Shown here one piece after another: positions 1,528-36,732 of a stretch of DNA of 64,000 nucleotides. The notes under the pieces were generated by a model, which was not told the origin of the DNA, did not search any database, and was given only the letters and a program-made list of their open reading frames with translations. Both the position numbers and the translations under genes were made by a program. The DNA is from Escherichia coli (GTDB taxonomy: Bacteria > Pseudomonadota > Gammaproteobacteria > Enterobacterales > Enterobacteriaceae), in NCBI RefSeq assembly GCF_003018255.1, contig NZ_CP027440.1; one strand, written 5' to 3'. Every line of letters starts with the position of its first letter. Position 1 is the stretch's first letter.

Positions 1528-2532
1528 ATGCGTAAGTCAGTTATCGCGATTATCATCATCGTGCTGGTAGTGCTTTACATGTCTGTCTTTGTCGTCAAAG
1601 AAGGTGAGCGCGGTATTACGCTGCGTTTTGGTAAGGTACTGCGTGACGATGACAACAAACCTCTGGTTTATGAGCCGGGTTTGCATTTCAAGATACCGTT
1701 CATTGAAACGGTGAAAATGCTCGACGCACGTATTCAGACCATGGACAACCAGGCCGACCGCTTTGTGACCAAAGAGAAGAAAGACCTGATCGTCGACTCT
1801 TACATCAAATGGCGCATCAGCGATTTCAGCCGTTACTACCTGGCAACGGGTGGTGGCGACATTTCGCAAGCGGAAGTGCTGTTGAAACGTAAGTTCTCTG
1901 ACCGTCTGCGTTCTGAAATTGGTCGTCTGGACGTGAAAGACATCGTCACCGATTCCCGTGGTCGTCTGACCCTCGAAGTACGTGACGCGCTGAACTCCGG
2001 TTCTGCGGGTACAGAAGATGAAGTTACTACCCCGGCGGCAGATAACGCCATTGCCGAAGCGGCAGAGCGCGTAACGGCTGAGACGAAGGGCAAAGTTCCG
2101 GTCATCAACCCGAACAGTATGGCGGCGCTGGGTATTGAAGTTGTCGATGTGCGAATTAAGCAGATCAACCTGCCGACCGAAGTGTCTGAAGCGATCTACA
2201 ACCGTATGCGCGCCGAGCGTGAAGCGGTAGCGCGTCGTCACCGTTCACAAGGTCAGGAAGAAGCGGAAAAACTGCGCGCGACTGCCGACTATGAAGTGAC
2301 CAGAACGTTGGCTGAAGCTGAGCGTCAGGGCCGCATCATGCGTGGTGAAGGCGATGCAGAAGCAGCCAAACTGTTTGCTGATGCATTCAGTAAAGATCCG
2401 GACTTCTACGCATTCATCCGTAGCCTGCGTGCTTATGAGAACAGCTTCTCTGGCAATCAGGACGTGATGGTCATGAGCCCGGATAGCGATTTCTTCCGCT
2501 ACATGAAGACGCCGACTTCCGCAACGCGTTAA
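1528..2532 (+). CDS. hflC: HflC, SPFH/band-7 regulator of FtsH protease
   Basis: 334 aa ORF MRKSVIAIIIIVLVVLYMSVFVVKEGERGI; 2-bp gap after hflK, operon arrangement. Confidence 0.95.
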   Translation: MRKSVIAIIIIVLVVLYMSVFVVKEGERGITLRFGKVLRDDDNKPLVYEPGLHFKIPFIETVKMLDARIQTMDNQADRFVTKEKKDLIVDSYIKWRISDFSRYYLATGGGDISQAEVLLKRKFSDRLRSEIGRLDVKDIVTDSRGRLTLEVRDALNSGSAGTEDEVTTPAADNAIAEAAERVTAETKGKVPVINPNSMAALGIEVVDVRIKQINLPTEVSEAIYNRMRAEREAVARRHRSQGQEEAEKLRATADYEVTRTLAEAERQGRIMRGEGDAEAAKLFADAFSKDPDFYAFIRSLRAYENSFSGNQDVMVMSPDSDFFRYMKTPTSATR

Positions 2533-2560
2533 TATAACGACTGCGGTACAGGTCAATAAA

Positions 2561-2598
2561 GCCACCGCATCCTCAGGGATGTCGGTGGTTTTATTTTT
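2561..2598 (+). terminator. Rho-independent terminator after hflC
   Basis: GC stem gccaccgcatcc...ggatgtcggtgg followed by ttttattttt. Confidence 0.6.
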
Positions 2599-2613
2599 CT
2601 ATAAGGATAATGA

Positions 2614-2811
2614 ATGAATTCGACAATCTGGCTGGCGCTTGCCCTGGTTTTGGTACTGGAAGGTTTAGGGCCGATGCTTTACCCGAAGGCATGGAAGAAG
2701 ATGATCTCTGCGATGACCAATTTGCCCGATAATATTTTACGTCGTTTTGGCGGTGGACTTGTGGTTGCGGGCGTTGTGGTCTACTACATGTTGAGGAAAA
2801 CGATTGGCTGA
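2614..2811 (+). CDS. yjeT: DUF2065 small membrane protein YjeT
   Basis: 65 aa hydrophobic ORF MNSTIWLALALVLVLEGLGP between hflC and purA. Confidence 0.8.
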   Translation: MNSTIWLALALVLVLEGLGPMLYPKAWKKMISAMTNLPDNILRRFGGGLVVAGVVVYYMLRKTIG

Positions 2812-2911
2812 ACAAAAAATAGACTGATCGAGGTCATTTTTGAGTGCAAAAAGTGCTGTAACTCTGAAAAAGCGATGGTAGAATCCATTTTTAAGCAAAC
2901 GGTGATTTTGA

Positions 2912-4213
<1,302 letters not shown>

Positions 4214-22919: not shown

Positions 22920-23228
22920 AGATACCTCCTCGACGGCTGACTTTGTGTGCTCTCCTCTTGTGGTGATCTTCTGATTTAATTTTAATCAATGATAAAGAAG
23001 TGGATGGTGACCATTTCTGATGCAGTTGTTCAAAAAAACACCATGATGAAGTGTGATGAACTTCAAATCAGCGTGTTAGTACGATTTGGTGAAGGATGAG
23101 ATTTATTTGTCGGCTGGCCTTGAGTTTAGCGGGGTATGTCAGTACTATAACGCGTCATTTTTCAGCCGACCTTTAACACGTTCCTTGCCTCCCCGGGATT
23201 CGGCTGACCCAGACAGGAGGCTGAATAA

Positions 23229-23642
<414 letters not shown>

Positions 23643-23648
23643 TTTCTG

Positions 23649-24195
<547 letters not shown>

Positions 24196-24224
24196 TCGGT
24201 CACGGTCCATTAATACGACTTTGA

Positions 24225-24686
<462 letters not shown>

Positions 24687-24710
24687 TTCGTTATTCAACG
24701 AGACGTAAAA

Positions 24711-24740
24711 ACGCCGACCAGTGGTCGGCGTTTTGCTTTT
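24711..24740 (+). terminator. Rho-independent terminator of the rpsF-priB-rpsR-rplI operon
   Basis: acgccgaccagtggtcggcgt hairpin followed by tttgctttt. Confidence 0.85.
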
Positions 24741-25046
24741 AAGTGATAAAAACCGCAGAAACAGACGTTCCCTCCATAAATCTCTTGCTATTCCTTTTAT
24801 AAAAAGTTCGCAGTACCCATACCTGGCCCCCAGCCTCGCCGCTGGTAGTTCGTGTCATGTTTTTTACGCGTAAAACACGACAAAAGCATCAATACAGCGA
24901 TCGTCTCACTTGTATGATAATAAAAACAATATGTTATATATGAATGTGCTGTTATTTTATTGTTTTTATATATAAAAAGATAAAATACCATCACTTTCGT
25001 AATCTTGAACGCTTTGCAGGTGCGTTCAATCCAATAAATGCTAATA

Positions 25047-25067
25047 TTATGGCTATCATAGCCATAA
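25047..25067. promoter_or_regulatory. Perfect 21-bp palindrome, candidate operator of the HTH/HipA-like module
   Basis: TTATGGCTAT-C-ATAGCCATAA (10-bp arms, 1-bp centre) ending 21 bp upstream of the HTH gene start codon. Confidence 0.45.
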
Positions 25068-25087
25068 AAAGATAAAATATTATCACT

Positions 25088-25579
25088 ATGGGTAAAAAAA
25101 CAGCACCGTTACTCCCTTATACGAATCAGATGCTTAGTGAATTTGGTGAGCGGCTGAAACTTGCTCGTTTACGACGCAGGCTTACCGCAAAGCAAGTTGC
25201 TGAACGTGCTGGGATGTCGCCAATAACATTGCGCTCTCTGGAGTCAGGAAGTGCAGGGGTCACGATAGGGGCATATTTGTCTGTGATGCAGGTTTTGGGC
25301 CTGGAAACGGATTTAAATAAGCTTGCAGCTGAAGACGACTTAGGGCGTCAGCTCCAGGATTCCCGTTTGATTAAAAAAAGAGGGCTTTCTCGTGCATCAA
25401 GTAAGAATGAAGAAGGTTCTCAGACAGCCTCATTGCAGATGAGGCACGAGAAAGAAGGTCATCTCACCACGGATTTAACAGCACTGGCAGAAGGCTCGAC
25501 GCCATCTATTACAGGAGAAACATCAACCTCTCTTGCAGCACTATTAAAACCGATAAAAAAACCGTTAAAAGGAAATTAA
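25088..25579 (+). CDS. XRE-family HTH protein, HipB-like putative antitoxin with long C-terminal extension
   Basis: 163 aa; HTH_XRE signature around [32 protein letters not shown]; Ser/Thr/Glu-rich low-complexity C-terminal ~75 aa; stop 25577-25579 is 2 bp before the kinase ATG. Confidence 0.75.
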
Positions 25580-25581
25580 TT

Positions 25582-26850
25582 ATGGCATTAATCGGAGTGT
25601 ATGCGGATTGGGAAGGCCTGGATGGTCCGGAGCGGATTGGTTATTTACACAGTCGCCGCACTCGGACGCGTGAGATATTTGAGTTTGAGTACGATAAAAA
25701 GGCGCTTGCAGATCCTTCACTTAATTTCATTCAGTTAGATCCTGAAATAATGTTGTATGAGGGAGCACACTACCCAATTCCTCCAAAGGATAAATTTGGT
25801 GCATTTAGTGATTCCTGCCCGGATCGTTGGGGGCGTATGCTAATGAAGCGTCGTTTTGAGAGGGATATTCGAGACGGGTTATGTGATAAAGACTCCCACC
25901 TTTATGAGTCTGATTATCTACTAGGTGTTCATGATCTTTATCGGGTTGGGGCCCTTCGATACAAACGTGAAGACGCTGGAGAGTTTCTTGATAATCGCAT
26001 TGATGTTGCAGCCCCACCATTTACCGAAATAGCGAGTCTGGAAAGGGCTAGCCGGGCAATTGAAGAAGATCCTGATAATAAAGAGCTAATGGGGCAAAAA
26101 TGGTTAAGAATGCTAATCGCTCCGGGGGGATCATTAGGGGGGGCACGTCCGAAAGCCAGTGTTGTTGATGAAGCTGGGCATCTCTACATCGCTAAATTTC
26201 CCAGTGTAAAAGATGAGTATGATGTTGGTGGATGGGAAATGGCCGTTAATGCACTTGCTGTTGGCTGTGGACTGAATGTTGCACCTGCTCAGGCGCATAA
26301 ATTTGCCAGCAATTACCATTGTTTTATGGTTCGTCGTTTTGACCGCACTAATGCGGGAAGGCGTCTGCATTTTGCTTCGGCTATGACACTAACCAGGCAT
26401 CAGGATGGTGAAGATGCCTCTACAGGTGTGAGTTATCTGGAATTAGCAGATGTTCTTATCAGGCATGGCGCGCAGACTAATACTGATCTTAAGGAACTCT
26501 GGTCCAGGATTGTTTTTAATATTCTTGTTTCTAATACCGATGATCATTTACGCAATCATGGATTTATCTTGATACCAGGAAAAGGTTGGCGGCTTTCTGA
26601 GGCATATGATTTGAATCCTGTGGTCAGGTCTGATGGTTTAAAACTCAATATTACGGAAAATGACAATGCACTTGATTTGGAATTAGCTAGAGAAGTTGCA
26701 GAGTATTTTCGACTTAGTTTGACGGAAGCTGATGACATTATTGCTAATTTTAGAGGGATTGTCAGTCAGTGGCGAATCATTGCCGAGCGTCTGAGATTAC
26801 CTGGTCGTGAGCAAGAGTTAATGGCAGAGGCATTCAGAGCGTCAATTTAG
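25582..26850 (+). CDS. HipA-family serine/threonine kinase (putative type II toxin)
   Basis: 422 aa; Gly-rich loop GGSLGGARPKAS, catalytic-loop motif NTDDHLRNHG and HipA_C-like C-terminus (DLNPVV...); aaggaa RBS upstream of ATG. Confidence 0.8.
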   Translation: MALIGVYADWEGLDGPERIGYLHSRRTRTREIFEFEYDKKALADPSLNFIQLDPEIMLYEGAHYPIPPKDKFGAFSDSCPDRWGRMLMKRRFERDIRDGLCDKDSHLYESDYLLGVHDLYRVGALRYKREDAGEFLDNRIDVAAPPFTEIASLERASRAIEEDPDNKELMGQKWLRMLIAPGGSLGGARPKASVVDEAGHLYIAKFPSVKDEYDVGGWEMAVNALAVGCGLNVAPAQAHKFASNYHCFMVRRFDRTNAGRRLHFASAMTLTRHQDGEDASTGVSYLELADVLIRHGAQTNTDLKELWSRIVFNILVSNTDDHLRNHGFILIPGKGWRLSEAYDLNPVVRSDGLKLNITENDNALDLELAREVAEYFRLSLTEADDIIANFRGIVSQWRIIAERLRLPGREQELMAEAFRASI

Positions 26851-26947
26851 AATAGTTATTTCGATATATTCGCTAAATCATAAATTTGCGAAGCAATGCC
26901 AGTAGATACTGAACGTTTTGGAAGAGACGTTTAATTTATGAGAAAAA

Positions 26948-26982
26948 TAGAAACGCTACAAAGCTAAATTATAGCGTTTCTA
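26948..26982. terminator. Bidirectional hairpin between the HipA-like gene and the convergent MFS gene
   Basis: tagaaacgct ... agcgtttcta inverted repeat (10-bp stem, ~15-nt loop) in an AT-rich context. Confidence 0.5.
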
Positions 26983-26992
26983 TGTAAAATAA

Positions 26993-28270
26993 TTAGCTTG
27001 TCGCTAACTGTACTTGTGGTTCTTCGTCTTTAACTTTGATAAGCATCCACAGCGCAATGGCGCCAATAATGTCAAAGAAAGCCAGGGCAATAAAGAACGG
27101 CGCGAAGCCAATAATGTGAACGAATGCCCCGATAAACAGGTTGAAAATCAACTGACCGCTCCATGCACAGGCTCCTGCCATACCCACAGCGGTAGCTACT
27201 TCGTCTTTTTTGAATAGGTCACCGCCCAGAGTTGCTGCAACAGTAGAAAGACATTGATGCGAGAATGCGCCAATGCTAATCAGTAATACGGCGATGTAGG
27301 GATTTTCGACAATACTCACCAGACCAATCGTCATCATAATGACGGCTGCAATAGTGAAGGTAATTCTTCGTGAGTTAATTAAACTCACGCCGCGATCGTG
27401 GAAGAACTTCGCGACAAAACCACTGGCTAAACAGCCGAGATCGCCCAGCAGGAAAGGTAGCCAGACGAACATGGCAATTTCTTTCAGGCTAAAATGCAGC
27501 GTTTCGACGAAGAAAATCGGTACCCAGAAGTTAATGGTTCCCCATGCCGGGTCAGCGAGAAAACGCGCGATGCCAATCCCCCAGAAATTACGTTGGCTGA
27601 GGATATGCTTGATTGACGTTTTTTCTTTCTTATCTGTTTTAAGATGCTGTTCTTGCCCAGACTCAATATAGTGGCGCTCTTCATCAGAAAGGCGTTTAGC
27701 ATCTTTTGGATCTTTATAACAAAAGAACCAAAATAAAGCCGCGAGTAAAGCAAGGCTACCTGAGACAATAAACGCAAATTGCCAGCTATGAAACATAATG
27801 CACCAGGCAATCAACGGTGGAGCAAGCATCGCGCCGAGTGAGGTGCCCATATTGAAAACACCTGTCGCCACGCCACGCTCTTTTGCCGGGAACCATGTTG
27901 ATGCGGTTTTTACACCCGCAGGAATTGCCGATGCTTCGCTGAAACCCATCAGGGCGCGCATAAATGCCAGACCTGACCATGTTCCTGTCAAGGCATGCCC
28001 CATTGTCGCCAGGCCCCAGATTGCGGCACATATCGCAAAACTTAACTTCAGACCCACGGTATCAATAAAGAAGCCCATTATCGGTTGCCCCAATGTATAG
28101 GCCAACTGGAATGCACTGACAATCCATGAATATTGTTCTTTGGTTATTCCGGTTGTCTCCATAATCGTTGGAGCCGCAATACCTAACGCCGTTCTGTCCA
28201 GATAATTGATTACAGTGATAAAGCATACGAGGGCAATCATATGCCATCGATAATTCTTTATTTTATTCAT
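26993..28270 (-). CDS. MFS transporter, anion:cation symporter family (ExuT/hexuronate-transporter-like)
   Basis: 425 aa, 12-TM-like hydrophobicity; MNKIKNYRWHMIALVCF...WFPAKERG...KEIAMFVWLP resembles ExuT/DgoT-type sugar-acid transporters as recalled from memory. Confidence 0.8.
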   Translation of the reverse strand: MNKIKNYRWHMIALVCFITVINYLDRTALGIAAPTIMETTGITKEQYSWIVSAFQLAYTLGQPIMGFFIDTVGLKLSFAICAAIWGLATMGHALTGTWSGLAFMRALMGFSEASAIPAGVKTASTWFPAKERGVATGVFNMGTSLGAMLAPPLIAWCIMFHSWQFAFIVSGSLALLAALFWFFCYKDPKDAKRLSDEERHYIESGQEQHLKTDKKEKTSIKHILSQRNFWGIGIARFLADPAWGTINFWVPIFFVETLHFSLKEIAMFVWLPFLLGDLGCLASGFVAKFFHDRGVSLINSRRITFTIAAVIMMTIGLVSIVENPYIAVLLISIGAFSHQCLSTVAATLGGDLFKKDEVATAVGMAGACAWSGQLIFNLFIGAFVHIIGFAPFFIALAFFDIIGAIALWMLIKVKDEEPQVQLATS

Positions 28271-28362
28271 TTTTAAACCTTTTAATTATATTAATAAACC
28301 CTGGTTGTTGGTATTTCCATGTAATAGGCAATAAAAATCAGGTACAGAGGAAATATTGAAAA

Positions 28363-30435
28363 TTATTGTGTGTAAATGTCTCCCTTTAAAAAATCTGGCC
28401 AGTTTTTTTCAAAGTAAATACCGTTAATACACGGTTGCATACGTAAAGACTTTACTTCGGTAATAAAAGAACCTTGCGAATATTGAATTGTTAATTTGTG
28501 ATTTTTGTCTTCAGCGAGTTCAGAGCGAAAACGCCATTCTTCTTTTGCGCCGCGACGAGTTTGTGGTAGGCATTTGCCTTGTGGATCAATAACCATACGC
28601 GCCCCACGGCTACCACCACCAGCATCAATATAATGCGTTAATTGTGTTAATACCGCGGCAGAAGTCAGCGCCATATGCCGCCACATAAACAGCTCGGCAA
28701 CTTCACCCACATGTTTGATTGCCAATCCATGCCGTTGGACAAATTCGTTCAATAGCAGGGCATCACGAGTGGCACGTCGGACTTTATCGGCATGGCAAAT
28801 AAATCCCGCATAGTCAGACATTCGTGCCTGAATTTTTTCTCTCACAACCGACAACGGCATCCCGGTCCCGTTATCGTGCGCCTGAGTAATGATCTCTCTT
28901 ATAGAAGCCAGTGCCGGAGCTACCAGCTGTGCTATATCTCCATCAATATTACGTTTTTGCGTGCAACCAATAAAACGTGCCAGACGAACAGCAAAAACCT
29001 GCCCGGCATTCAATGCCGCACCACCAGGGCGAGTGACGCCGTGTGTGCCAGCAACTTCCCCCACGGCGAAACAGCCGGGCAGGGAGGTTTGTCCCCAGAT
29101 ATCCACTTCAATGCCGCCATTCATATGCTGATTATTCATGGCAAACTGCAAAGGCTGTGTGGTGAGATCGTAACCGTGCATCTTATACAGCGAGATAGAC
29201 AGCGGATTCATTCGTTGCAGCCGTTCGATGGGCGATGGTGCCAGAGCGTCGTTATTTTCCAGATACGCGCGAACGTCGTCGTCCAGTCGATCTAATGAGA
29301 AGGGCAGGTCACCCGGCACCGCTTCAGGATTGCGATTGAAATCCATAAATACCTGACGCCCTGATTGCTGCTCTTGCGCTACAGCCATATCTAACAAGCT
29401 GGAGCCAAACTCCATTACCCGAGTGGCGTGGAACGGCCACTGATAGCCTTTACGAAAAATGTTTGAAGCCAGCTCCTGGGTGGTGCGATAGTAATCCGCG
29501 AGGAAGTTATACTCGTTGCCCCCGGCATCCACGGAATAGATATGTGGGATCACCTGCACATAGGTGCCGGACAAATTCCACGGAAACGTGCTGCGCGGTG
29601 TGCCTATACCAAACTGGCTTTCAGTCAAATTGGTTAGCGTCAGACCTTCTTCCAGCGCCAGCCCCAGCGAGCCGAAACATTTGTGTGGGTACACACTGTC
29701 GCGATAAAGCTCGCCAGGCCCTCCTGTTGCCAGTACCACATTGGGCGCAATCACAATTGCCAGCCCCCATGGGTTATGGACGCGATGACCGGTCGCGAGG
29801 ATAGCCCCCGCCACGCGGTCTTCGCCGTTTTCGTCACGCTGATGCAGCAGTTTAATCACTGTTGCACTGGTCAACATTGGGATAGCAAGACGCTGTACTT
29901 CTTCCAGCAGCACTTTCACCATTAACCTTGAGGTACGTGGCCCACACGAGGTTGCACGCCCGGCTTCGTCATGGTCGGTTTGATAACGAAGAATCGCACC
30001 ATAGCGATCTTCCGGTAATTCCAGACCAAGATATTGCAACCCGCCAAGAGTGTGCAGAGAACCTACCGCTTCGACATAAGCAGTGTCGTGATCCATCGCC
30101 CCACCACTCGCCAGTGCCTCTGCCAGTTTGGTGAAGTTGTCGCCGTTGCCCGCGGTAGCGGCGGTAAACAGCGTCTGTTTATCGGAACCGGAGCAGGCCG
30201 ATGTTCCCATGTATAACCCGGCGGTGGCGATTAACACATTTTGCTGGCGGCGTTTAAGTTCCACAGCTGCACGCAGCCCGGCTGCACCACTGCCGACTAC
30301 CAGGGCATCTGTTTGCCAAAGTGGGTAATCAACACCGTCTACCGTGACAACCCATGCGGGTTCTGCCTGTGCAAAACCCTTTGGGAAAGTAACGTGCGTC
30401 AGCGCATCAAGGATGGTGTCATCAAGCTGACTCAT
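28363..30435 (-). CDS. FAD-dependent oxidoreductase (succinate dehydrogenase/fumarate reductase flavoprotein-like superfamily)
   Basis: 690 aa; N-terminal Rossmann dinucleotide motif VVGSGAAGLRAAVEL; start ATG overlaps the stop of the upstream CoA-transferase gene (ATGA). Confidence 0.7.
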   Translation of the reverse strand: MSQLDDTILDALTHVTFPKGFAQAEPAWVVTVDGVDYPLWQTDALVVGSGAAGLRAAVELKRRQQNVLIATAGLYMGTSACSGSDKQTLFTAATAGNGDNFTKLAEALASGGAMDHDTAYVEAVGSLHTLGGLQYLGLELPEDRYGAILRYQTDHDEAGRATSCGPRTSRLMVKVLLEEVQRLAIPMLTSATVIKLLHQRDENGEDRVAGAILATGHRVHNPWGLAIVIAPNVVLATGGPGELYRDSVYPHKCFGSLGLALEEGLTLTNLTESQFGIGTPRSTFPWNLSGTYVQVIPHIYSVDAGGNEYNFLADYYRTTQELASNIFRKGYQWPFHATRVMEFGSSLLDMAVAQEQQSGRQVFMDFNRNPEAVPGDLPFSLDRLDDDVRAYLENNDALAPSPIERLQRMNPLSISLYKMHGYDLTTQPLQFAMNNQHMNGGIEVDIWGQTSLPGCFAVGEVAGTHGVTRPGGAALNAGQVFAVRLARFIGCTQKRNIDGDIAQLVAPALASIREIITQAHDNGTGMPLSVVREKIQARMSDYAGFICHADKVRRATRDALLLNEFVQRHGLAIKHVGEVAELFMWRHMALTSAAVLTQLTHYIDAGGGSRGARMVIDPQGKCLPQTRRGAKEEWRFRSELAEDKNHKLTIQYSQGSFITEVKSLRMQPCINGIYFEKNWPDFLKGDIYTQ

Positions 30436-31973
30436 GCATCCTCCATCGGCGTAAACAGGCTACTTTCCATCAGGCGTGGGTGCTTGATAATTGGACGGAA
30501 AGCCATATACGGCAGAATGTCGCGCTCAATCTCCACACCCGGCGCGATTTCAATTAATTCAACGCCTTCTGCCGTTAACTGGAATACTGCGCGTTCAGTG
30601 ATATACAGCACTTCCTGACCACTTTGCTGTGCGTAGGCGGCGCTAAAAGTGATTTTTTCCACTTGGGTAACCAGTTTAGGGATTTGACCTGACTGGGCGA
30701 TATGCAGGCCATCAGGCGTTACATCAATCTTGCTGCCTTTGGCGTCAAACGTACCGCAGAACACCACTTTACGGGCGTTTTGCGCAATTTCGAGGAAGCC
30801 GCCGGGGCCAATGAGATTGCCATTGAGATGGGATACGTTGACGTTACCGTACCGATCCATCTCTCCCATGCCGAGGAAGGTGATATCGATACCGCCGCCA
30901 CTGTAGAATTCGAATTGATCGAGTGATGGAATAATGGCGTCGGCGTTACGGGCGCAGCCGAACAGAGCATCATCCAGCATCATGCCGTTATGTACGCCTT
31001 GCTCGACGCTCATCCATAAACTTTGATAAGGCACGCCTTCGCGCAGCGCAACCCCAGGAATACCGCCCGGAATACCAAAGCCAAAGTTGGTTGAAGCGCC
31101 TGCCACCAGTTCCCGTGCTGCCCGACGGGCAATCAGGCGACGCACCGGATGACTAACCAGTTCAATAGCGTCGTTAGAACTTAGACGGCGATGTTGACCG
31201 CTGATCGTCAGGTCGTAACCGCCAAGATAGGTTTGCGGTTGTTCGCGGTGTTCAACGATACCATCGACCAGAATCCCCGGTAGCTTGACCTTGCGAGGTT
31301 CAATGGCGCCAGCTTCCAGTACATCGCGCACCTGTACAAACACTTTGCCGCCACTGTTGTGTGCTGCCAGCGCCATCGAATAGCTATCCATATCAATCGC
31401 TTCTTCTTCGAGGCTAACGTTGCCACGCGGATCGGCATAGGTGCCGCGCAAAATCGCGTAGTCCACTTTGAAAGGGCGATAGCGGAGTTTGGTTTCACCG
31501 TCGATTTCAATCAGTTCTACCAGGTCGTCGGTCGTGCATTCATTCGACTTACCGCCACCATTGCGTGGATCAACAAACGATCCCAGCCCAACGTGGGTAA
31601 AAAGCCCCGGACGTCCGGCACCGATCTCCCGCAGCAGTGCCTGAATTACGCCACCAGGGAAACAGTAGGCTTCAATAGCATTGCTTTTCACCAGTTCCTG
31701 CATCTTGGGCGACCAGGTAAAATGTCCGGCAATAATGCGTTTGAGCATTTCGGCGTGAGCAAAACGGTTAGTGCCTTTGCTGTCGCGATCGCCAATACCC
31801 AGCGAGTGGATTAATGTCAGATCGCGCGGGTGTCCGGTTTGCAGGAAACGCGCTTCAATGGCGGCCATAATATGGTCAGCTTCCACCATACCGCCGCCGT
31901 TACCGCTAATGGCAATGGTTGCGCCGTCCTGAATTTGCGCCGCCAGTGTCTCGGCGGTTGATAACTTACGCAT
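30432..31973 (-). CDS. Family I CoA-transferase, fused alpha/beta subunits (YdiF-like acyl-CoA:acetate CoA-transferase)
   Basis: 513 aa; GSFVDPRNGGGK and YITERAVFQLTAEGVELIEIAPGVEIERDIL closely parallel YdiF motifs as recalled from memory. Confidence 0.75.
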   Translation of the reverse strand: MRKLSTAETLAAQIQDGATIAISGNGGGMVEADHIMAAIEARFLQTGHPRDLTLIHSLGIGDRDSKGTNRFAHAEMLKRIIAGHFTWSPKMQELVKSNAIEAYCFPGGVIQALLREIGAGRPGLFTHVGLGSFVDPRNGGGKSNECTTDDLVELIEIDGETKLRYRPFKVDYAILRGTYADPRGNVSLEEEAIDMDSYSMALAAHNSGGKVFVQVRDVLEAGAIEPRKVKLPGILVDGIVEHREQPQTYLGGYDLTISGQHRRLSSNDAIELVSHPVRRLIARRAARELVAGASTNFGFGIPGGIPGVALREGVPYQSLWMSVEQGVHNGMMLDDALFGCARNADAIIPSLDQFEFYSGGGIDITFLGMGEMDRYGNVNVSHLNGNLIGPGGFLEIAQNARKVVFCGTFDAKGSKIDVTPDGLHIAQSGQIPKLVTQVEKITFSAAYAQQSGQEVLYITERAVFQLTAEGVELIEIAPGVEIERDILPYMAFRPIIKHPRLMESSLFTPMEDA

Positions 31974-31982
31974 ACAATTTCC

Positions 31983-32759
31983 TTATTGATTGTGGAAGCT
32001 CACGCCGGCTTTTTCGGCAAATGCGTGCGTCGCCTGCTGGCAATCCTGAGTGGCGGACATTAATCCAGCCAGTAACTGGTGGGAGTAATCGGCGTGTTTA
32101 TTTTCCAGCGCCAGAATCAGTTGCTTAATATGTGCCAGTGCCACCGGACCACATTTTTCCAGCTGCGCTAACTGGTTCGCCATCCAGCTTTCCACCTGTT
32201 CTTTTTCTACCACTTCATCAATTAAATTCGCCACCTGGGCTTCCTGCGCCGTCAGGCGTTTACCCAGCATCAGCATCTGGCGACCGACCACCGGGCCAAC
32301 CTGATTAAGCACGCGTTCAATGCCCATCCAGCCAGGCACCATGCCGAGCATCACTTCCGGGTTAGAGAATTTCGCGCCGGGGCGAGCGATACGAATATCG
32401 CAGCACAAGGCAAGTTCAATACCGCCACCGATGGTATGACCGTTGAGATTCGCAACGGTTAATTGGGGTAAGTTGCGCAGGCGATTAAAAACCTCGTTAC
32501 CGCGTTTAATCCATTTTCTGCCCATATCTAATGGCGAATAGGCCGACCACGATTTAATATCGCCGCCCGCACAAAAGAATTTATCGCCGGTTGCCGTTAA
32601 TTCGACTAATCGTAATGTGGTGTCGTTTTCAATTTCATTTAAATAATGGTCGAGAGATTCGATCATTTCTTCATTAATAGCATGACATTTATCTTCACGG
32701 TTCAATGTCAGGCGGCAAGAAGCCGCCGCTCTGCTGAACAGAACGGGTTGGTCACTCAT
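31983..32759 (-). CDS. Enoyl-CoA hydratase/isomerase (crotonase-fold) protein
   Basis: 258 aa; crotonase-like oxyanion-hole region (FFCAGGDIK ... GHTIGGGIELALCCDIRIA). Confidence 0.75.
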   Translation of the reverse strand: MSDQPVLFSRAAASCRLTLNREDKCHAINEEMIESLDHYLNEIENDTTLRLVELTATGDKFFCAGGDIKSWSAYSPLDMGRKWIKRGNEVFNRLRNLPQLTVANLNGHTIGGGIELALCCDIRIARPGAKFSNPEVMLGMVPGWMGIERVLNQVGPVVGRQMLMLGKRLTAQEAQVANLIDEVVEKEQVESWMANQLAQLEKCGPVALAHIKQLILALENKHADYSHQLLAGLMSATQDCQQATHAFAEKAGVSFHNQ

Positions 32760-32768
32760 GATTATTCC

Positions 32769-33611
32769 TTAGCAATAATGTGCGATGCGATCGACGCTAA
32801 TATCCAGCGTGCTGTTAATATCTTTCTGCCACCAGTACGGTGAGAATATTTCCAGTTCAATAGCGCCATTAAATCCGGCGTTTTCAACCAGCCGACGAAT
32901 TGACGGAATATTGATGACACCATCTCCCGGCATTCCACGGTCATTGACCAGATCGGTGGTCGGCACTAACCAGTCGGAAACATGAAACGCGAGGATGCGT
33001 TTTCCGGCACGCAGGATCTGACTGGCGAGATCCGGGTCCCACCAGACATGGTAGACATCTACCGCCACGCCGAGGCCAAATTCGCCATCGGGATCGAGTT
33101 CATCACACCAGTCCAGCGCCTGACGTAACGTGCACAGACAAGAACGATCGGCAGCAGTCATCGGGTGCAGTGGCTCCAGTGCAATTGGCACGCCGACCTC
33201 TTTCGAATGTGGCAGCAACTGGCGAATCCCTTGTTTCACCTGTTCCCGTGCTTCGTACAGATCTTTTGTTCCCATTGGCAGACCGCCAACCACCTGCATG
33301 TAACAGGCGGCATTTAGCACAGCGGCATCGTCCAGCGCCCGGCGGTTATCATCAATCGCCAGCTTGCGCTCCGCCAGCGTCGGTGCGGTGTAGTAGGTGC
33401 TACGGCACAAACCGGAAACGTTTATGTTACTGGCAGCAAGCTGGCGGGCGATTTGCTGGAGATCTTCACCCTGCAACTCCCTGCGCCAGGGGGCAATGGC
33501 GCCAATACCGCGTGCGGCGCAGGCATCAATAATGGCGGGTAGCGGCGTTTTATAGCCCAGTGTCGCGGTATTGATACTGAATAAATCCGGGCGTTGTAAC
33601 AGATCTCTCAT
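32769..33611 (-). CDS. Xylose-isomerase-like TIM-barrel protein (sugar phosphate isomerase/epimerase or dehydratase family)
   Basis: 280 aa; AP-endonuclease-2/xylose-isomerase-like TIM-barrel pattern, same fold family as UlaE/IolE; function inferred from family only. Confidence 0.6.
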   Translation of the reverse strand: MRDLLQRPDLFSINTATLGYKTPLPAIIDACAARGIGAIAPWRRELQGEDLQQIARQLAASNINVSGLCRSTYYTAPTLAERKLAIDDNRRALDDAAVLNAACYMQVVGGLPMGTKDLYEAREQVKQGIRQLLPHSKEVGVPIALEPLHPMTAADRSCLCTLRQALDWCDELDPDGEFGLGVAVDVYHVWWDPDLASQILRAGKRILAFHVSDWLVPTTDLVNDRGMPGDGVINIPSIRRLVENAGFNGAIELEIFSPYWWQKDINSTLDISVDRIAHYC

Positions 33612-33620
33612 GATTCAGCC

Positions 33621-34412
33621 TCAGAAGCGCGGCATACTTAAGCCGCCGTCGATGGCGACCGCCTGACCACAGGTGTAAATCAGTTTACCTTCCGCCATCG
33701 CGCGGACAGTGGAAGCAATATCAGCCGGATAACCCCAACGTCCCCACGGCACCAGACCTTTGGCAATCAGTTCGTCGTAATAGGCCGTTGCCGGAATAGT
33801 CATATCGGTTTTGATGAGACCAGGACGCACTTCATATACGCCAATTTGTTCATTACAAAGGCGAGCAGCAAATAGACGAGCAGCGGCAGAGACGGCAGTT
33901 TTGGCAATGGTATATTCGCCGCGATTCATCGCCAGCATGATGGCGTTGATGGAACTGACGAAAATAATCGAGCGGTGCGGCAGTTCTGCTTCCGGTTTCG
34001 GCTGTGCCAGTAAGCGCTTACTGAATGCCTGAGCGAGGAAGAACGGTGCGCGGGTGTTAATGGCAATATTTTGGTCGAAGCTGTCTGGTTCGAGGTCGAG
34101 AAGATCACCGCGTTTTTTCACTGAAATGCCTGCGTTGTTGAGCAGGCAGTCCAGACGTCCCCACTGGTTTTGCGCTGCGTCGAGCATCTCTTCATGCAGG
34201 GAGAGATCGCCCACATCAGCAGGGAAGCAAATCACTTCCACGCCTTCCGCCAGACATTCTTGTTGTGTGGCATGTAATTTTTCTACGCTATCCGCATCCG
34301 GACGATCATTAATCAGCAGATTAAATCCGCCACGCGCAAGCTCCAGCGCACAGCCCTTTCCAATACCACGAGCGGCTCCGGTAATCACGGCAACAGGAAG
34401 AGTGGATTTCAT
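33621..34412 (-). CDS. Short-chain dehydrogenase/reductase (SDR)
   Basis: 263 aa; cofactor motif TGAARGIGKG and catalytic YxxxK (YTIAKTAV); first gene of the minus-strand operon. Confidence 0.8.
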   Translation of the reverse strand: MKSTLPVAVITGAARGIGKGCALELARGGFNLLINDRPDADSVEKLHATQQECLAEGVEVICFPADVGDLSLHEEMLDAAQNQWGRLDCLLNNAGISVKKRGDLLDLEPDSFDQNIAINTRAPFFLAQAFSKRLLAQPKPEAELPHRSIIFVSSINAIMLAMNRGEYTIAKTAVSAAARLFAARLCNEQIGVYEVRPGLIKTDMTIPATAYYDELIAKGLVPWGRWGYPADIASTVRAMAEGKLIYTCGQAVAIDGGLSMPRF

Positions 34413-34480
34413 ACAATAGCTCTCTTTTTTTGAATTTTGTTTCCTTAGTGATGATTAGCTTGCGACTGGAGGGTAAAAAG

Positions 34481-34502
34481 ATCAACCATCTAGTTGGTTG
34501 AT
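34481..34502. promoter_or_regulatory. Near-perfect 22-bp palindrome in the divergent SDR/TetR intergenic region (candidate TetR operator)
   Basis: ATCAACCATCTAGTTGGTTGAT, 20 of 22 positions self-complementary, 8-bp perfect arms. Confidence 0.4.
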
Positions 34503-34624
34503 ATGCGATGGCGATCACAGGACATTTGATAACCTGATGAAAGTACAAGTTTTTGCCCTTTTTTCTGAAGCTGAAATCAAATCAGGTTATGATAGTCACC
34601 ACGAAGAGGTCGTGGGGAAGCGTT

Positions 34625-35272
34625 ATGTATCTTGATACCAGCAACGTACAGAGCCTGAAAGAAAAGCTGCTGTTATGCGCGGTTAATGAATTTGCCGAAT
34701 ATGGTTACGAAGGGGCCAGAGTCGATAATATCGTCAAGGCCGCGGGGTGCAGTAAACAGACGGTTTATCACCACTTTGGTAATAAAGAAAATTTATTTAT
34801 CGAAGTACTGGAATATACCTGGAACGATATTCGACAAAAAGAAAAGGCCCTTGATTTCTCAGATCTTCCGCCACAGAAAGCCATTGAGAAAATAATCGAT
34901 TTTACATGGGATTATTATATTTCTAATCCCTGGTTTTTAAAAATTGTGCATAGTGAAAATCAAAGTAAGGGTGTGCATTATGCAAAGTCACAGCGTCTTT
35001 TAGAAATTAACCATGCGCACTTGCAGTTAATGGAATCCTTATTGGATGAAGGGAAGAAAAACAATATTTTTAAGCCAGATATCGACCCATTGCAGGTGAA
35101 TATTAATATTGCTGCGCTTGGGGGATATTATTTGATCAACCAGCATACGCTTGGTCTGGTTTATCACATCAGTATGGTTTCACCCCAGGCACTGGAAGCC
35201 AGACGTAAGGTCATCAAAGAGACAATCCTTAGCTGGCTTTTGGTTGACCCTTCATCTACCGCGCGCGAATAA
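34625..35272 (+). CDS. TetR/AcrR-family transcriptional regulator
   Basis: ORF track 34553..35272 begins at a TTG; ATG at 34625 with ggggaag RBS is more plausible (215 aa); TetR_N HTH ([27 protein letters not shown]). Confidence 0.75.
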
Positions 35273-35894
35273 AACTGCCATCCGGCTGGCGGGTAAACAG
35301 GACCTGTTGATTATTCCCCGTATCAATGGTTAAGCCCGTCACCACGCCGCTGGCGTTCTGGCGGATTTTCACCATCTGCCCGTTTTGCAAATTACTCAGT
35401 GGCTTATCCGCGCCTTCTACCTGCGCCATGGCATAGACATCGGTAGCGGGCAGTCCGTGGTCGCGGAACAGCTGCGCCATCGTTTTACCGGGTTCGACAC
35501 GATAGGAGCGCCATTGATTATCAATTCCGCTATCTGGCTGGAATGGTTGCGTATGGGTGGTTTGCGGCTGCTCTTCTGGCTGGCCTTCCTGTATTGGTTC
35601 TGGAGCGACCGGAGCCACCTGATCAGGATCATTTTGTGGCGTGACTAATTGCGCCCGCAGCTGTTCTTCTGTCGGTGGTTGTGATTGCGACTGAATATCT
35701 AACTGCGCTTCACGCGTCACCACCGGCGCGTTGGGCGTATCATCAGATGGAAGCAGAAATCCGACTACCAATACAATGGCGGCAATAATGATCCCCCGAC
35801 GATGCATCGGCGGCAGCGGGTCCATGAAGCGAAAATTGTCCGGCGCGTGCCAGACTTTCTCCAGGGTTGGTTTTAGTTCAAAGCGCCCGGGCAT
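35256..35894 (-). CDS. ytfB: Cell-division-associated OapA/LysM-domain protein YtfB
   Basis: ORF track 35256..35930; start at [21 protein letters not shown], 212 aa; Pro/Gln-rich linker and C-terminal OapA-like domain. Confidence 0.85.
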
Positions 35895-36111
35895 GGTTTC
35901 CTCCTGCTCCGCGTCTTGTTCCTCAATCATAGCCTATGAATAAGCTAACGCTATGATGTCCGTGGTAAACCCGCCTTTATTATATTCATACGGGATATTG
36001 CTATTGTTTCTTTTTCCCCGGGATTTGTCATCATTCCCGCGACAAAGTTTTACCCAAAGAAGTGTGGCTGATATGCTGCCCGCTACTTTATACCCTAAGA
36101 AAGGAAATACG

Positions 36112-36732
36112 ATGACCACCCCAACTTTTGACACCATCGAAGCGCAAGCAAGCTACGGCATTGGTTTGCAGGTAGGGCAACAACTGAGTGAATCTGGCCT
36201 GGAAGGGCTGCTGCCAGAAGCACTGGTTGCAGGCATTGCCGATGCGCTGGAAGGCAAACATCCGGCTGTTCCGGTTGATGTGGTGCACCGCGCGCTGCGT
36301 GAAATCCACGAACGCGCCGATGCCGTTCGTCGTCAGCGTTTCCAGGCGATGGCTGCTGAAGGTGTGAAATACCTGGAAGAAAACGCCAAAAAAGAAGGTG
36401 TAAATAGCACCGAATCTGGCCTGCAATTCCGCGTGATCAACCAGGGCGAAGGCGCAATTCCGGCACGTACCGACCGCGTTCGTGTTCATTACACCGGAAA
36501 ACTGATCGACGGCACCGTGTTTGACAGCTCCGTTGCTCGCGGCGAGCCAGCTGAATTCCCGGTTAACGGCGTGATCCCTGGCTGGATTGAAGCACTGACT
36601 CTGATGCCGGTAGGTTCTAAATGGGAACTGACTATCCCGCAGGAACTGGCATATGGCGAGCGTGGCGCAGGCGCGTCCATCCCTCCGTTCAGCACCCTGG
36701 TGTTTGAAGTCGAACTGCTGGAAATCCTCTAA
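36112..36732 (+). CDS. fklB: FKBP-type peptidyl-prolyl cis-trans isomerase
   Basis: ORF track 35953..36732; start at ATG 36112 ([20 protein letters not shown]) after aaggaaa RBS, 206 aa. Confidence 0.93.

Follow-up and report, generated by a model that had tools for sequence, protein, structure and literature searches.

The region between rplI and ytfB in this E. coli genome probably unites DNA of two origins: positions 26967-35272 represent an ancestral enterobacterial locus, lost in the K-12 lineage, with an operon that would act on a sugar-acid-like compound, and positions 24740-26966 hold foreign hipBA cargo. The window is the whole stretch of DNA analysed, 64,000 nucleotides of contig NZ_CP027440.1. 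The first-pass annotation had regarded the entire block as a 10.5-kb insertion, which stands for 24740-26966 (about a fifth of it, AT-rich and foreign) but not for 26967-35272, which is syntenic in four other species and has core-like synonymous divergence (dS). The nine genes of the block are not universal in E. coli, nor is the block at once core-like and universally conserved, and the earlier description is corrected rather than refuted.

Organization of the rplI-ytfB locus

The ORF list reproduces the arrangement described earlier, with nine ORFs between rplI and ytfB: a hipB-like and hipA-like pair on the plus strand, a six-gene operon on the minus strand and a divergent TetR gene. The backbone that had been called conserved is present on both sides (rpsF-priB-rpsR-rplI upstream, ytfB-fklB-cycA downstream). 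The operon and the edges of the block comprise the following features:

24708..24734, plus: intrinsic terminator hairpin of rplI, left wall of the variable slot (terminator scan)
26947..26983, minus: terminator hairpin 3' of the MFS gene, closing the variable slot on the right (terminator scan)
26993..28270, minus: MFS transporter of the anion:cation-symporter type, 425 aa, last gene of the operon (NCBIfam TIGR00893)
28271..28362: spacer between the flavoprotein and MFS genes, 92 bp, 26% GC (composition, comparison)
28363..30435, minus: FAD-dependent oxidoreductase (flavoprotein), 690 aa, FAD_binding_2 (profile and structure matches)
30432..31973, minus: family I CoA-transferase, fused alpha/beta, YdiF-like, 513 aa (PDB 2ahu, YdiF, E 3e-114)
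31983..32759, minus: crotonase-family enoyl-CoA hydratase/isomerase, 258 aa (many NCBIfam models, E 1e-44 to 1e-28)
32769..33611, minus: TIM-barrel protein, xylose-isomerase-like (AP_endonuc_2), 280 aa (PDB 3qc0/3ju2, E 2e-85)
33621..34412, minus: short-chain dehydrogenase/reductase (SDR), 263 aa, first gene of the operon (NCBIfam NF009386, PRK12745, 417 bits against a cut-off of 250)
34477..34500: candidate TetR operator, palindrome AAAGATCAACCATCTAGTTGGTTG in the divergent promoter region (inverted repeat I1)
34625..35272, plus: TetR-family regulator (intact ytfA), 215 aa, TetR_N and TetR_C_29, divergent from the operon (RefSeq annotation of the orthologue, profiles)
35256..35894, minus: ytfB, core gene whose 3' end overlaps the TetR gene convergently by 17 bp (ORF list, annotation)

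Comparison of the E. coli forms places the block junctions at 24739/24740, 26967 and 28372. Homology is lost at the first of these in all E. coli forms, directly after the rplI terminator hairpin; it picks up again at 26967 in the yjfZ form and at 28372, adjoining the spacer 28271..28362, in the form that has a TRAP system in place of the MFS transporter. The variable slot is a few base pairs wide and is flanked by two convergent terminators. This window carries hipBA there and other E. coli carry yjfZ; in Salmonella and Klebsiella an EamA gene occupies the slot, and in E. marmotae it is empty and the two terminators, including a homologous MFS-side hairpin, stand a few bp apart. The AT-rich left edge reported by the first-pass annotation is real (34.5% GC at 24740-25087), and so is the 17-bp overlap between the TetR gene (stop at 35272) and ytfB (3' end at 35256). 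However, this overlap does not mark the right edge of an insertion: it also measures 17 bp in E. albertii, E. marmotae, Salmonella and K. oxytoca, and is therefore an ancestral feature. As had been noted, signs of mobility are absent: the gene annotation of the block lists neither an integrase nor a transposase, and there is no tRNA at 20-40 kb of the window, no match to an Rfam family within the block, and no direct or inverted repeat at the junctions longer than in shuffled controls.

Predicted function of the operon

A literature search on the operon found no paper, and of its enzymes only the SDR, with its generic name, scores above a curated NCBIfam cut-off. The CoA-transferase, whose stop shares 4 bp with the flavoprotein start, scores 381 bits against FadX (cut-off 750). 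It resembles K-12 YdiF (acetate/3-ketoacid family I CoA-transferase, PDB 2AHU) in its fused alpha/beta organization and similar length, but is a paralogue in another operon and lies under every NCBIfam equivalog cut-off. Every enoyl-CoA hydratase match of the crotonase is likewise under its cut-off; Pfam ECH_1 is found in the orthologues. The structures matched by the TIM-barrel protein are those of S. meliloti SMc04130 (3qc0/3ju2) and 7vpf (E 1e-61). The flavoprotein is distant kin of NadB, FrdA and TfrA, with all NCBIfam matches far under cut-offs and a best PDB match of E 7e-9, and its family comprises 412 clusters (50% identity) at E<=1e-30. The SDR is the commonest partner of this family (30 of 80 loci), and the CoA-transferase and crotonase accompany the flavoprotein in just 8 to 13 of the 80. 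Distant flavoprotein homologues adjoin SDR, TIM-barrel and TRAP genes, and elsewhere LacI, Gfo/Idh/MocA, GMC, PfkB-kinase and Eda-like aldolase genes.

The top NCBIfam match of the MFS transporter is the D-galactonate transporter subfamily TIGR00893, though under its cut-off (314 bits against 395). The transporter gene has itself been swapped in some lineages: the MFS that Salmonella and Klebsiella have here is a different one, just 52% identical, and a TRAP system takes its place in 1446 E. coli genomes (27%); the solved proteins closest to the TRAP binding protein include glucuronate and galacturonate binders (E 1e-72 to 1e-58; ligands from PMC7660916, PMC11668362). In this respect the locus is similar to the TRAP and MFS systems for hexuronate uptake (STM3169-3171 of Salmonella; ExuT and DgoT-type MFS), whereas its downstream enzymes are not Uxa/Uxu/Kdg or Udh/Gci.

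Together, these matches point to a sugar acid as the substrate. The transporter would import an anionic, sugar-acid-like compound, the conserved trio of SDR, TIM-barrel enzyme and flavoprotein would oxidise and rearrange it, and in the enterobacterial version the CoA-transferase and crotonase may take part of the route via CoA thioesters. TetR would bind the 24-bp palindrome between the two promoters and be released by the substrate or an intermediate. This candidate operator is constant save for one central A/G position among the E. coli forms, E. albertii, E. marmotae, Salmonella and K. oxytoca, and the remainder of the TetR-SDR spacer varies around it. The ORF list also gives a longer, TTG-initiated TetR frame (34553-35272); the RefSeq orthologue starts at the ATG at 34625.

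The CoA-transferase and crotonase are hard to place in sugar-acid routes already known. Given this and their rarity beside the flavoprotein, the sugar-acid reading may not hold for the enterobacterial version. An enterobacterial sugar-acid route via CoA thioesters has been proposed for 2-deoxy-D-ribonate in Klebsiella michiganensis, with an MFS importer and a CoA-transferase as in the window (Price et al. 2019, PMC6365646). That route has CoA-synthetase, beta-hydroxyacyl-CoA dehydrogenase, thiolase, glycerate kinase and lactonase genes and, unlike the window operon, no FrdA-type flavoprotein, TIM-barrel enzyme or crotonase; identity of the two systems was rejected because their gene content differs.

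It is unlikely, though by no means negligibly so, that the operon instead serves to break down a fatty, dicarboxylic or alicyclic/aromatic carboxylic acid by a route resembling beta-oxidation, proceeding from CoA activation through FAD-dependent desaturation and crotonase hydration to oxidation by the SDR. By general biochemistry the enzyme roles fit such a cycle one to one, and the top NCBIfam matches are FadX, short-chain enoyl-CoA hydratase, '3-ketoacyl-ACP reductase' and FadR/AcuR-like TetR regulators. However, apart from the generic SDR model these matches are far under curated cut-offs, the flavoprotein is of the FrdA/NadB type and not an acyl-CoA dehydrogenase, and the operon lacks a thiolase. 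Moreover, the alternative MFS and TRAP transporters are both of sugar-acid types, and the flavoprotein/SDR/TIM-barrel trio stands elsewhere beside sugar kinases, LacI, Gfo/Idh/MocA and Eda-like genes.

The hipBA-like module

Only the 2.2-kb segment 24740-26966 (leader and hipBA) behaves like acquired DNA. It contains the following features:

24740..25087: AT-rich leader of the module, 34.5% GC, with candidate promoter and operator repeats (composition)
25047..25067: perfect palindrome with 10-nt arms, TTATGGCTAT-c-ATAGCCATAA, just 5' of hipB (inverted-repeat search, I13)
25088..25579, plus: hipB-like gene, 163 aa, XRE-type HTH at residues 18-75 and a tail of ~90 aa (Pfam HTH_31, 6.6e-11)
25582..26850, plus: hipA-like Ser/Thr kinase gene of a divergent clade, 422 aa (Pfam HipA_C, 3.4e-47)

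The module has 42.6% GC (GC3 0.34-0.37) and is missing from the otherwise identical E. marmotae locus. Its closest relatives outside Escherichia are on plasmids of Azotobacter (72-76% identity, with an HTH gene alongside) and of Pantoea (equally close, annotated as HipA only). In RefSeq the two genes are named helix-turn-helix domain-containing protein and type II TA system HipA family toxin. The hipB-like protein scores 30 bits against NCBIfam couple_hipB, under the cut-off, and with its long tail and 163 aa differs from K-12 HipB, which has 88 aa. The nearest solved relative of the kinase is HipT of E. coli O127 (phmmer E 2e-8), and K-12 HipA is very remote (E 0.12); unlike HipT, the window kinase is full length, includes an N-terminal region and lacks a HipS partner. 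As in the HipBA, HipBST and HipH (YjjJ) families of Hip kinases (Gerdes et al. 2021, PMC8262856), an HTH gene lies 5' of a HipA_C kinase gene, here 2 bp apart, and the kinase has a Gly-rich loop with adjacent Ser (GSLGGARPK, residue 183), an NxDxHxxN-type catalytic motif (NTDDHLRN, 318) and a Mg-binding motif (YDLNP, 342). The pair is a putative toxin-antitoxin module with a highly divergent HipA-family kinase. Its leader contains a 24-nt direct repeat (24972-24995 and 25064-25087), and the palindrome 25047..25067 is a candidate HipB operator.

In E. albertii the same leader (92-94% identity) and hipB are found at the identical junction, with hipA deleted, and yjfZ has been reported as confined to E. 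coli and Shigella (PMC11057252). Both observations would suit hipBA being the ancestral Escherichia occupant of the slot and yjfZ a later replacement, as opposed to a late arrival of hipBA in one E. coli lineage. We consider this order of events distinctly unlikely: the E. marmotae slot is empty, the composition of the module is foreign, and dS between E. coli and E. albertii is 0.09 in hipB and 0.13 in the MFS gene, several-fold under the neighbouring genes (0.2-0.67), which indicates recent transfer rather than common descent.

Conservation of the seven-gene unit and its loss in K-12

The seven-gene unit from MFS to TetR (26967-35272, 8.3 kb) occurs at rplI-ytfB in E. albertii, E. marmotae, Salmonella enterica and K. 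oxytoca. All four share the order cycA-fklB-ytfB-TetR<>SDR-TIM-ECH-CoAT-flavoprotein-MFS-[slot]-rplI, with equal or nearly equal gene lengths. Identity to the window is 92% in E. albertii, 90% in E. marmotae and 78-79% in Salmonella and Klebsiella. Relative to E. albertii, dS is 0.20-0.67 for operon genes and 0.32-0.49 for ytfB, fklB and cycA; relative to Salmonella, the ranges are 1.07-1.90 and 0.78-1.37. The operon genes have dN/dS of 0.01-0.08. The five enzyme genes have 52.6% GC against 51.5% for the window; the MFS (46.5%) and TetR (40%) genes are not core-like in GC.

As stated by the first-pass annotation, K-12 carries yjfZ and a TetR pseudogene, ytfA, at this locus. Two parts of the unit survive there:

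34222..34323: SDR stretch, in K-12 a decayed 102-bp remnant of ~80% identity (K-12 comparison)
34870..35272, plus: TetR portion kept by K-12 as the ytfA pseudogene, 403 bp (K-12 homology restarts at 34870)

The SDR remnant sits between yjfZ and ytfA, which RefSeq labels 'missing N-terminus'; ytfA matches 34870-35272 within a ~98%-identical flank and has the same ytfB overlap. By contrast, the window has an intact regulator with a divergent six-gene operon and candidate operator, and hipBA where K-12 has yjfZ. Since the 3' 403 bp of TetR and a degraded SDR fragment remain, the K-12 arrangement is the derived one, with the operon deleted. The scar is shared by the O145 locus, where an IS200/IS605 element has since divided it.

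Among 5426 complete E. coli genomes (at least 80% coverage of each segment), the enzyme core is present in 3114 (57%) and absent from about 43%, hipBA is found in 1040, TRAP in 1446 and yjfZ in 2514. Just 1655 cover at least 80% of 24000-36500, which bears out the strain variability proposed earlier. The ytfA gene was reported from only some E. coli, yet from every strain of E. albertii and E. fergusonii studied (PMC6790063).

Evolution of the locus

Within Salmonella and Klebsiella the operon is patchy, as judged by the names of sequence matches, so that vertical descent needs many losses. E. coli alleles are up to ~10% apart in places, an unusually high divergence, and similarity of the window to its nearest relative, JNE23-011, is mosaic; recombination has therefore clearly acted at the locus, possibly from other species. 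The low dS of the hipB-MFS segment (0.09-0.13), far closer between E. coli and E. albertii than that of neighbouring genes, indicates that flank-guided exchange between species does occur here. All this would agree with repeated movement of the operon between enterobacterial genera, in which homologous recombination within the highly conserved flanks (rplI, ytfB/fklB) would bring it to the same place each time. Such a history has only a slim chance of being correct, as the five enzyme genes and TetR have dS values in step with those of flanking core genes in all four outgroups, the identity gradient matches the species tree, and the 17-bp overlap and candidate operator are kept throughout. Acquisition of the whole of 24741-35272 as one cassette, with K-12 yjfZ/ytfA as the older state, is scarcely credible despite its absence from K-12 and ~43% of complete E. 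coli genomes, its AT-rich edges and the below-average GC of TetR and MFS: it is already contradicted by synteny of the unit in four further species of three genera, by dS equal to flanking core genes and core-like GC of the enzyme genes, by the TetR and SDR fragments in K-12, by sub-parts that differ in junctions and distributions, and by dS of 1.1-1.9 to Salmonella and Klebsiella, which excludes the outgroup loci as recent E. coli transfers.

In the favoured reading of an ancestral locus with added cargo, vertical descent would account for the operon locus in Escherichia, Salmonella and Klebsiella, and a single old deletion in the E. coli lineage of K-12 and O145/O157-type strains would have left the SDR fragment and TetR 3' end as a scar. 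Cargo would enter the slot by illegitimate recombination, with no part played by mobile-element machinery, and then spread among lineages via homologous recombination in the conserved flanks. The rplI-ytfB region is an ordinary variable locus.

Gene organization of the rplI–ytfB locus

The gene order between rplI and ytfB was taken from the ORF list and from RefSeq annotation of strain JNE23-011, whose genome is 98.8% identical. The nine ORFs described in the first-pass annotation, together with the AT-rich left tract and the overlap between the TetR-family gene and ytfB, are all present in the window.

Features of the rplI–ytfB locus (window coordinates; the operon genes are numbered in transcription order)
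23165-23249, + strand, RpsF leader upstream of rpsF (Rfam RF02893, 110 bits)
24237-24686, rplI, followed by a terminator hairpin at 24708-24734
25088-25579, + strand, hipB-like HTH gene, 163 aa
25582-26850, + strand, hipA-family gene, 422 aa, starting 2 bp after the hipB-like gene
26993-28270, - strand, MFS transporter, sixth and last
28363-30435, - strand, FAD-dependent oxidoreductase (flavoprotein), fifth
30432-31973, - strand, CoA-transferase, fourth
31983-32759, - strand, enoyl-CoA hydratase (crotonase), third
32769-33611, - strand, TIM-barrel protein, second
33621-34412, - strand, SDR, first
34625-35272, + strand, TetR-family gene, divergent from the operon, with a 17-bp overlap between its end and the 3' end of ytfB
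35256-35894, - strand, ytfB, core gene

The RpsF leader lies where it is expected for a core ribosomal-protein operon, and the 348 bp past the rplI terminator have a GC content of 34.5%. The block contains no integrase or transposase according to the ORF list and annotation, no tRNA in the tRNA scan and no Rfam family in the Rfam scan. At every junction checked, the longest common word was 6–7 nt, below the 95th percentile of shuffled sequences. The earlier reading that integrase, transposase, tRNA target and flanking direct repeats are lacking is thus borne out. The end of the CoA-transferase gene overlaps the beginning of the flavoprotein gene by 4 bp (30432-30435), and some E. coli records (P0004, P0030) contain fused proteins of 1043–1078 aa, the former with both FAD_binding_2 and CoA_trans domains; these are presumably frameshift fusions or sequencing artefacts.

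Forms of the locus among E. coli genomes

We surveyed 5426 complete E. coli genomes, counting modules at a coverage of at least 80% and defining the forms of the locus from annotated representatives and pairwise BLAST comparisons. The backbone was matched in 5425 of the 5426 genomes, and at least 80% of the 12.5-kb query was covered in just 1655.

Forms of the rplI–ytfB locus and occurrence of their modules in 5426 complete genomes
Form 1 (that of the window): hipBA, MFS, five enzymes, TetR
Form 2: yjfZ, MFS, five enzymes, TetR
Form 3: three-gene TRAP transporter, five enzymes, TetR
Form 4 (K-12 type): yjfZ and a deletion scar
Form 5 (O145/O157-type strains): form 4 with an IS200/IS605 element within the TetR remnant
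Rare form: larger IS1-mediated deletions (strain KL53)
Enzyme core: 3114 genomes (57%)
hipBA: 1040 genomes (19%)
TRAP transporter: 1446 genomes (27%)
yjfZ: 2514 genomes (46%)

By subtraction, form 2 accounts for about 615 genomes, and the sum of 1040, 615 and 1446 is close to the 3114 genomes with the enzyme core. Carriers of this core include ST131, ATCC 25922 and the BL21 derivative T7 Express; hipBA is chromosomal in every carrier, O25b:H4-ST131 and ATCC 25922 among them. All forms share the left breakpoint at 24739/24740, and the points at which homology to the window restarts are 26967 (form 2), 28372 (form 3) and, within the TetR gene, 34870 (K-12).

A published study presents yjfZ as a signature gene conserved in all E. 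coli and Shigella and as a qPCR target for them (PMC11057252). In the yjfZ form of E. coli (L002) it occupies positions 2258-3052, matching the window slot 24740-26966; neither the window nor strains in which hipBA or the TRAP transporter fills this place, ST131 and ATCC 25922 among them, carry it. This universal qPCR marker is therefore missing in about half of complete E. coli genomes, because hipBA or the TRAP transporter takes its place. In strain KL53 (L017 9758-11420), an IS1 deletion extends from the middle of yjfZ through ytfB, fklB and cycA to a truncated metallophosphoesterase gene by cysQ, so the cell-division-associated ytfB is dispensable in this clinical isolate. KL53 also carries, inserted between ulaF and yjfY, a YagU-family gene that the window does not have.

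Ancestry of the operon and its deletion in K-12

The first-pass annotation had taken the whole block for a strain-variable inserted cassette, a view that does not hold for the operon unit 26967-35272, which is syntenic in four sister or outgroup species. Contigs of E. albertii, E. marmotae, Salmonella enterica and K. oxytoca have the order cycA-fklB-ytfB-TetR<>SDR-TIM-ECH-CoAT-flavoprotein-MFS-[slot]-rplI-rpsR-priB-rpsF, in which the slot is a short gap of variable content; the operon genes have the same or nearly the same lengths, and TetR overlaps ytfB by 17 bp in each. Identities of the flavoprotein homologues (92% in E. albertii, 90% in E. marmotae, 79% in K. oxytoca, 78% in Salmonella and 77% in Citrobacter) form a species-like gradient. 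In comparison with E. albertii, dS is 0.20–0.67 for the operon genes and 0.32–0.49 for ytfB, fklB and cycA, and the respective ranges with Salmonella are 1.07–1.90 and 0.78–1.37; by this measure the operon has diverged to a similar extent as the core genes beside it. The dN/dS ratios of every operon gene are 0.01–0.08 (Nei-Gojobori).

Foreign composition, another mark of a genomic island, applies to one part of the block only: the hipBA module has 42.6% GC and a GC3 of 0.34–0.37, whereas the five enzyme genes are core-like (52.6% GC versus 51.5% for the window). The TetR and MFS genes have 40.4% and 46.5% GC.

The presence of yjfZ and ytfA at this position in K-12, stated in the first-pass annotation, was confirmed, ytfA being a TetR pseudogene. 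K-12 (L004) keeps the 3' 403 bp of the TetR gene, labeled 'missing N-terminus' in RefSeq, and a 102-bp remnant of the SDR gene (L004 3217-3318) that is about 80% identical to every extant allele. The same scar occurs in an O145 strain (L016 2825-4970), and since the scar regions of the two strains are only about 95% identical, the deletion is old; in O145/O157-type strains the TetR remnant was later split by IS200/IS605 (tnpA/tnpB). Taken together, outgroup synteny, core-like dS, core-like GC of the enzyme genes and the fragments in K-12 argue that the 26967-35272 unit is ancestral at this locus and that K-12 represents an old deletion. This agrees with the published observation that ytfA occurs in only some E. 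coli strains, yet in every strain of E. albertii and E. fergusonii that was examined (PMC6790063). The description of the block as a strain-variable insertion thus survives for the hipBA module (24740-26966), which is absent in E. marmotae, and not for the rest, which was never acquired; for the same reason the puzzle of the acquisition mechanism is mostly gone.

A variable slot, transporter exchange and recombination

Only a few bp separate the rplI terminator from the hairpin that follows the MFS gene in E. marmotae, which delimits the slot. Its content is the AT-rich leader with hipBA in the window, yjfZ (41% GC) in other E. coli and an EamA-family gene in Salmonella and Klebsiella. The E. 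albertii locus (L005 13444-14520) has the same leader, hipB and junction as the window; hipA has been deleted, the segment corresponding to 25647-26885 being missing. Between E. coli and E. albertii, the dS values of hipB (0.09) and MFS (0.13) are several-fold below those of neighboring genes, and the orphan hipB of E. albertii has a dN/dS of 0.42. These values point to a recent interspecies exchange followed by decay, and suggest that the hipB-MFS segment was recently transferred between E. coli and E. albertii.

The transporter gene has been exchanged as well. In form 3, a TRAP system with 43.8% GC stands in place of MFS, the junction falling within the final codons of the flavoprotein gene. 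Across genera, the MFS protein of Escherichia (window 26993-28270) is just 52% identical to those of Salmonella (L008 12127-13404) and K. oxytoca (L010 12128-13405), all being 425 aa long, whereas the enzymes are 78–94% identical. Besides the MFS-to-TRAP swap within E. coli, the protein comparison thus indicates a non-orthologous transporter replacement between these genera. The 92-bp spacer between the flavoprotein and MFS genes (28271-28362; 26% GC) adjoins the MFS/TRAP breakpoint and may be either a seam of transporter exchange or an internal promoter.

Identity between the window and JNE23-011 is 100% in the flanks, hipBA and MFS and falls to 93–96% in three patches inside the operon, at approximately 30.5–31.5, 33.0–33.5 and 34.0–35.0 kb. 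Within E. coli, the divergence between operon alleles locally reaches about 10%, versus 0–2% in the flanks; for instance, the window and the yjfZ-form contig L002 are 89.6% identical at 30001-30500. Such patchy identity and deep allele divergence imply that homologous recombination is active across the operon, which by these alignments is a mosaic with deep allelic lineages.

Candidate TetR regulation of the operon

The TetR orthologues contain TetR_N and TetR_C_29 domains, and the gene is separated from the divergently transcribed SDR gene by a spacer of 212 bp (34413-34624). We aligned this spacer from three E. coli forms, E. albertii, E. marmotae, Salmonella and K. oxytoca, and obtained a mean column identity of 85%. 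A palindrome, ATCAACCATCT/AGTTGGTTGAT, lies within it, and the 24-nt sequence AAAGATCAACCATCT(A/G)GTTGGTTG is invariant in all seven sequences from the three genera. We infer that this 24-nt palindrome is bound by the regulator; its conservation is a strong footprint of a candidate TetR operator. The divergent TetR_N gene and the conserved candidate operator fit a putative TetR-controlled divergent operon.

Predicted substrate and enzymes

Three lines of evidence bear on the substrate class. The best NCBIfam model for the MFS transporter is TIGR00893 (D-galactonate-transporter, ACS), matched with 313.9 bits against a cut-off of 395 and by a wide margin over other models. The binding protein of the TRAP system that replaces MFS, WP_000695886.1, is similar to solved proteins, the closest with E values from 1e-72 to 1e-58, including the D-glucuronate/D-galacturonate binders 4N8Y, 4X8R, 4N91 and 4MHF (PMC11668362, PMC7660916). 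Finally, sugar-metabolism genes are frequent neighbors of the more distant flavoprotein homologues: the arrangements SDR-flavoprotein-TIM-DctPQM and TetR_C_29<>SDR-flavoprotein were found, as were neighboring PfkB kinases with LacI, Gfo/Idh/MocA and GMC oxidoreductases, sugar ABC ATPases and an Eda-like aldolase. Together these point to a sugar-acid substrate.

The flavoprotein family comprises 412 clusters (50% identity) at E<=1e-30, in which no characterised member was found. Among curated models, TfrA scored best (125 bits; cut-off 718), followed by NadB (99–105 bits; cut-offs 453–639); the protein shares just the FAD_binding_2 fold with SdhA, FrdA and NadB and fails the cut-offs of those families. 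A PDB sequence search gave only remote NadB and FrdA matches that are of no help on the substrate. Across 80 species-representative loci, the flavoprotein is most commonly accompanied by SDR (30), followed by TIM-barrel (13), crotonase (13) and CoA-transferase (8) genes, and all five enzyme genes together were present only in Escherichia and a single Pseudovibrio genome. The CoA-transferase resembles YdiF (PDB 2AHU; E 3e-114). No NCBIfam equivalog cut-off was reached by the operon enzymes, save for a generically named SDR model.

As a best guess, the transporter would import a sugar-acid-like anion, which the trio of SDR, TIM-barrel protein and flavoprotein would oxidize and rearrange; in enterics, part of the route could proceed via CoA thioesters made by the YdiF-like transferase and the crotonase. 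The acyl-CoA deoxyribonate pathway of Klebsiella michiganensis was considered as a counterpart and rejected, since its gene content differs: its CoA-synthetase, beta-hydroxyacyl-CoA dehydrogenase, thiolase, glycerate kinase and lactonase have no equivalent in this operon (PMC6365646). Literature searches by gene or locus names (yjfZ, ytfA, rplI, ytfB, TRAP), RefSeq accessions and PDB codes (7VPF, 3JU2, 3QC0, SMc04130) found no work on the operon.

The HipBA-like pair

The hipA-like product matches Pfam HipA_C (3.4e-47, residues 184-397) and contains the Gly-rich motif GSLGGARPK at 183, the catalytic motif NTDDHLRN at 318 and the Mg-binding motif YDLNP at 342. Its N-terminal region matches Couple_hipA weakly (E 0.25, residues 17-94), and its length fits full-length HipA. 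The co-oriented upstream gene encodes an HTH_31 domain (6.6e-11), and the region preceding it contains candidate HipB operators, namely a palindrome at 25047-25067 and a 24-nt direct repeat. By analogy with other type II antitoxins, the approximately 90-aa tail of the HTH partner probably neutralises the kinase. In architecture and motifs the pair is a predicted Hip-kinase toxin-antitoxin module that stays below curated family thresholds, the NCBIfam scores being 44.5 bits versus 401 for YjjJ and 30.3 versus 71.65 for couple_hipB.

The kinase is highly divergent. Its similarity to K-12 HipA is nearly undetectable (E 0.12), and its closest solved relative is HipT of E. coli O127 (E 2e-8). Plasmids of Azotobacter, where an HTH gene completes the pair, and of Pantoea encode homologues with 72–76% identity; a plasmid origin was rejected, as these relatives are no closer than that and belong to other genera. 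The single E. coli 'plasmid' match consists of five separate pieces in an 834-kb record, which may not be a true plasmid. A phage search gave no close relatives of hipA-like, and the PADLOC defence-system models gave weak HTH matches for HipB and one very weak match for HipA (E 0.0039). For placement in the Hip kinase tree, neither the accession nor the motifs were matched in part of the published supplementary sequence table. Nothing specific was found in the literature on hipBA in ST131/B2.

Implications of the locus

Every component of the locus is of a known kind: the intergenic slot varies in content, the reference strain bears a deletion scar, the catabolic operon is an orphan and the HipBA-like pair is divergent. 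As a putative mobile cassette the block is ordinary, and it does not qualify as a genomic island. With K-12 as the reference, a deletion in K-12 looks like an island elsewhere, which is a common trap of reference-based reasoning.

We tentatively entertain, at somewhat less than even chances, a joint reading in which the SDR, TIM-barrel and flavoprotein trio with the YdiF-like CoA-transferase and the crotonase would form an undescribed hexuronate-like catabolism running partly via CoA thioesters, and in which, separately, the HipA-like kinase would represent an uncharacterised Hip-kinase clade with a new cellular target. If true, the operon route would have been overlooked because K-12 had deleted the operon.

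The operon is an orphan that is conserved under strong purifying selection and present in most non-K-12 E. coli, clinical and industrial strains included; several other enteric genera keep it besides 57% of complete E. coli genomes. The lasting interest of the locus thus lies in an uncharacterised yet widely conserved operon and a divergent Hip kinase. The substrate of the former, probably an organic or sugar acid of host or diet origin, could bear on fitness in the gut or urinary tract, and the presence of the divergent HipA-family kinase module in ST131 and ATCC 25922 could be relevant to antibiotic tolerance.
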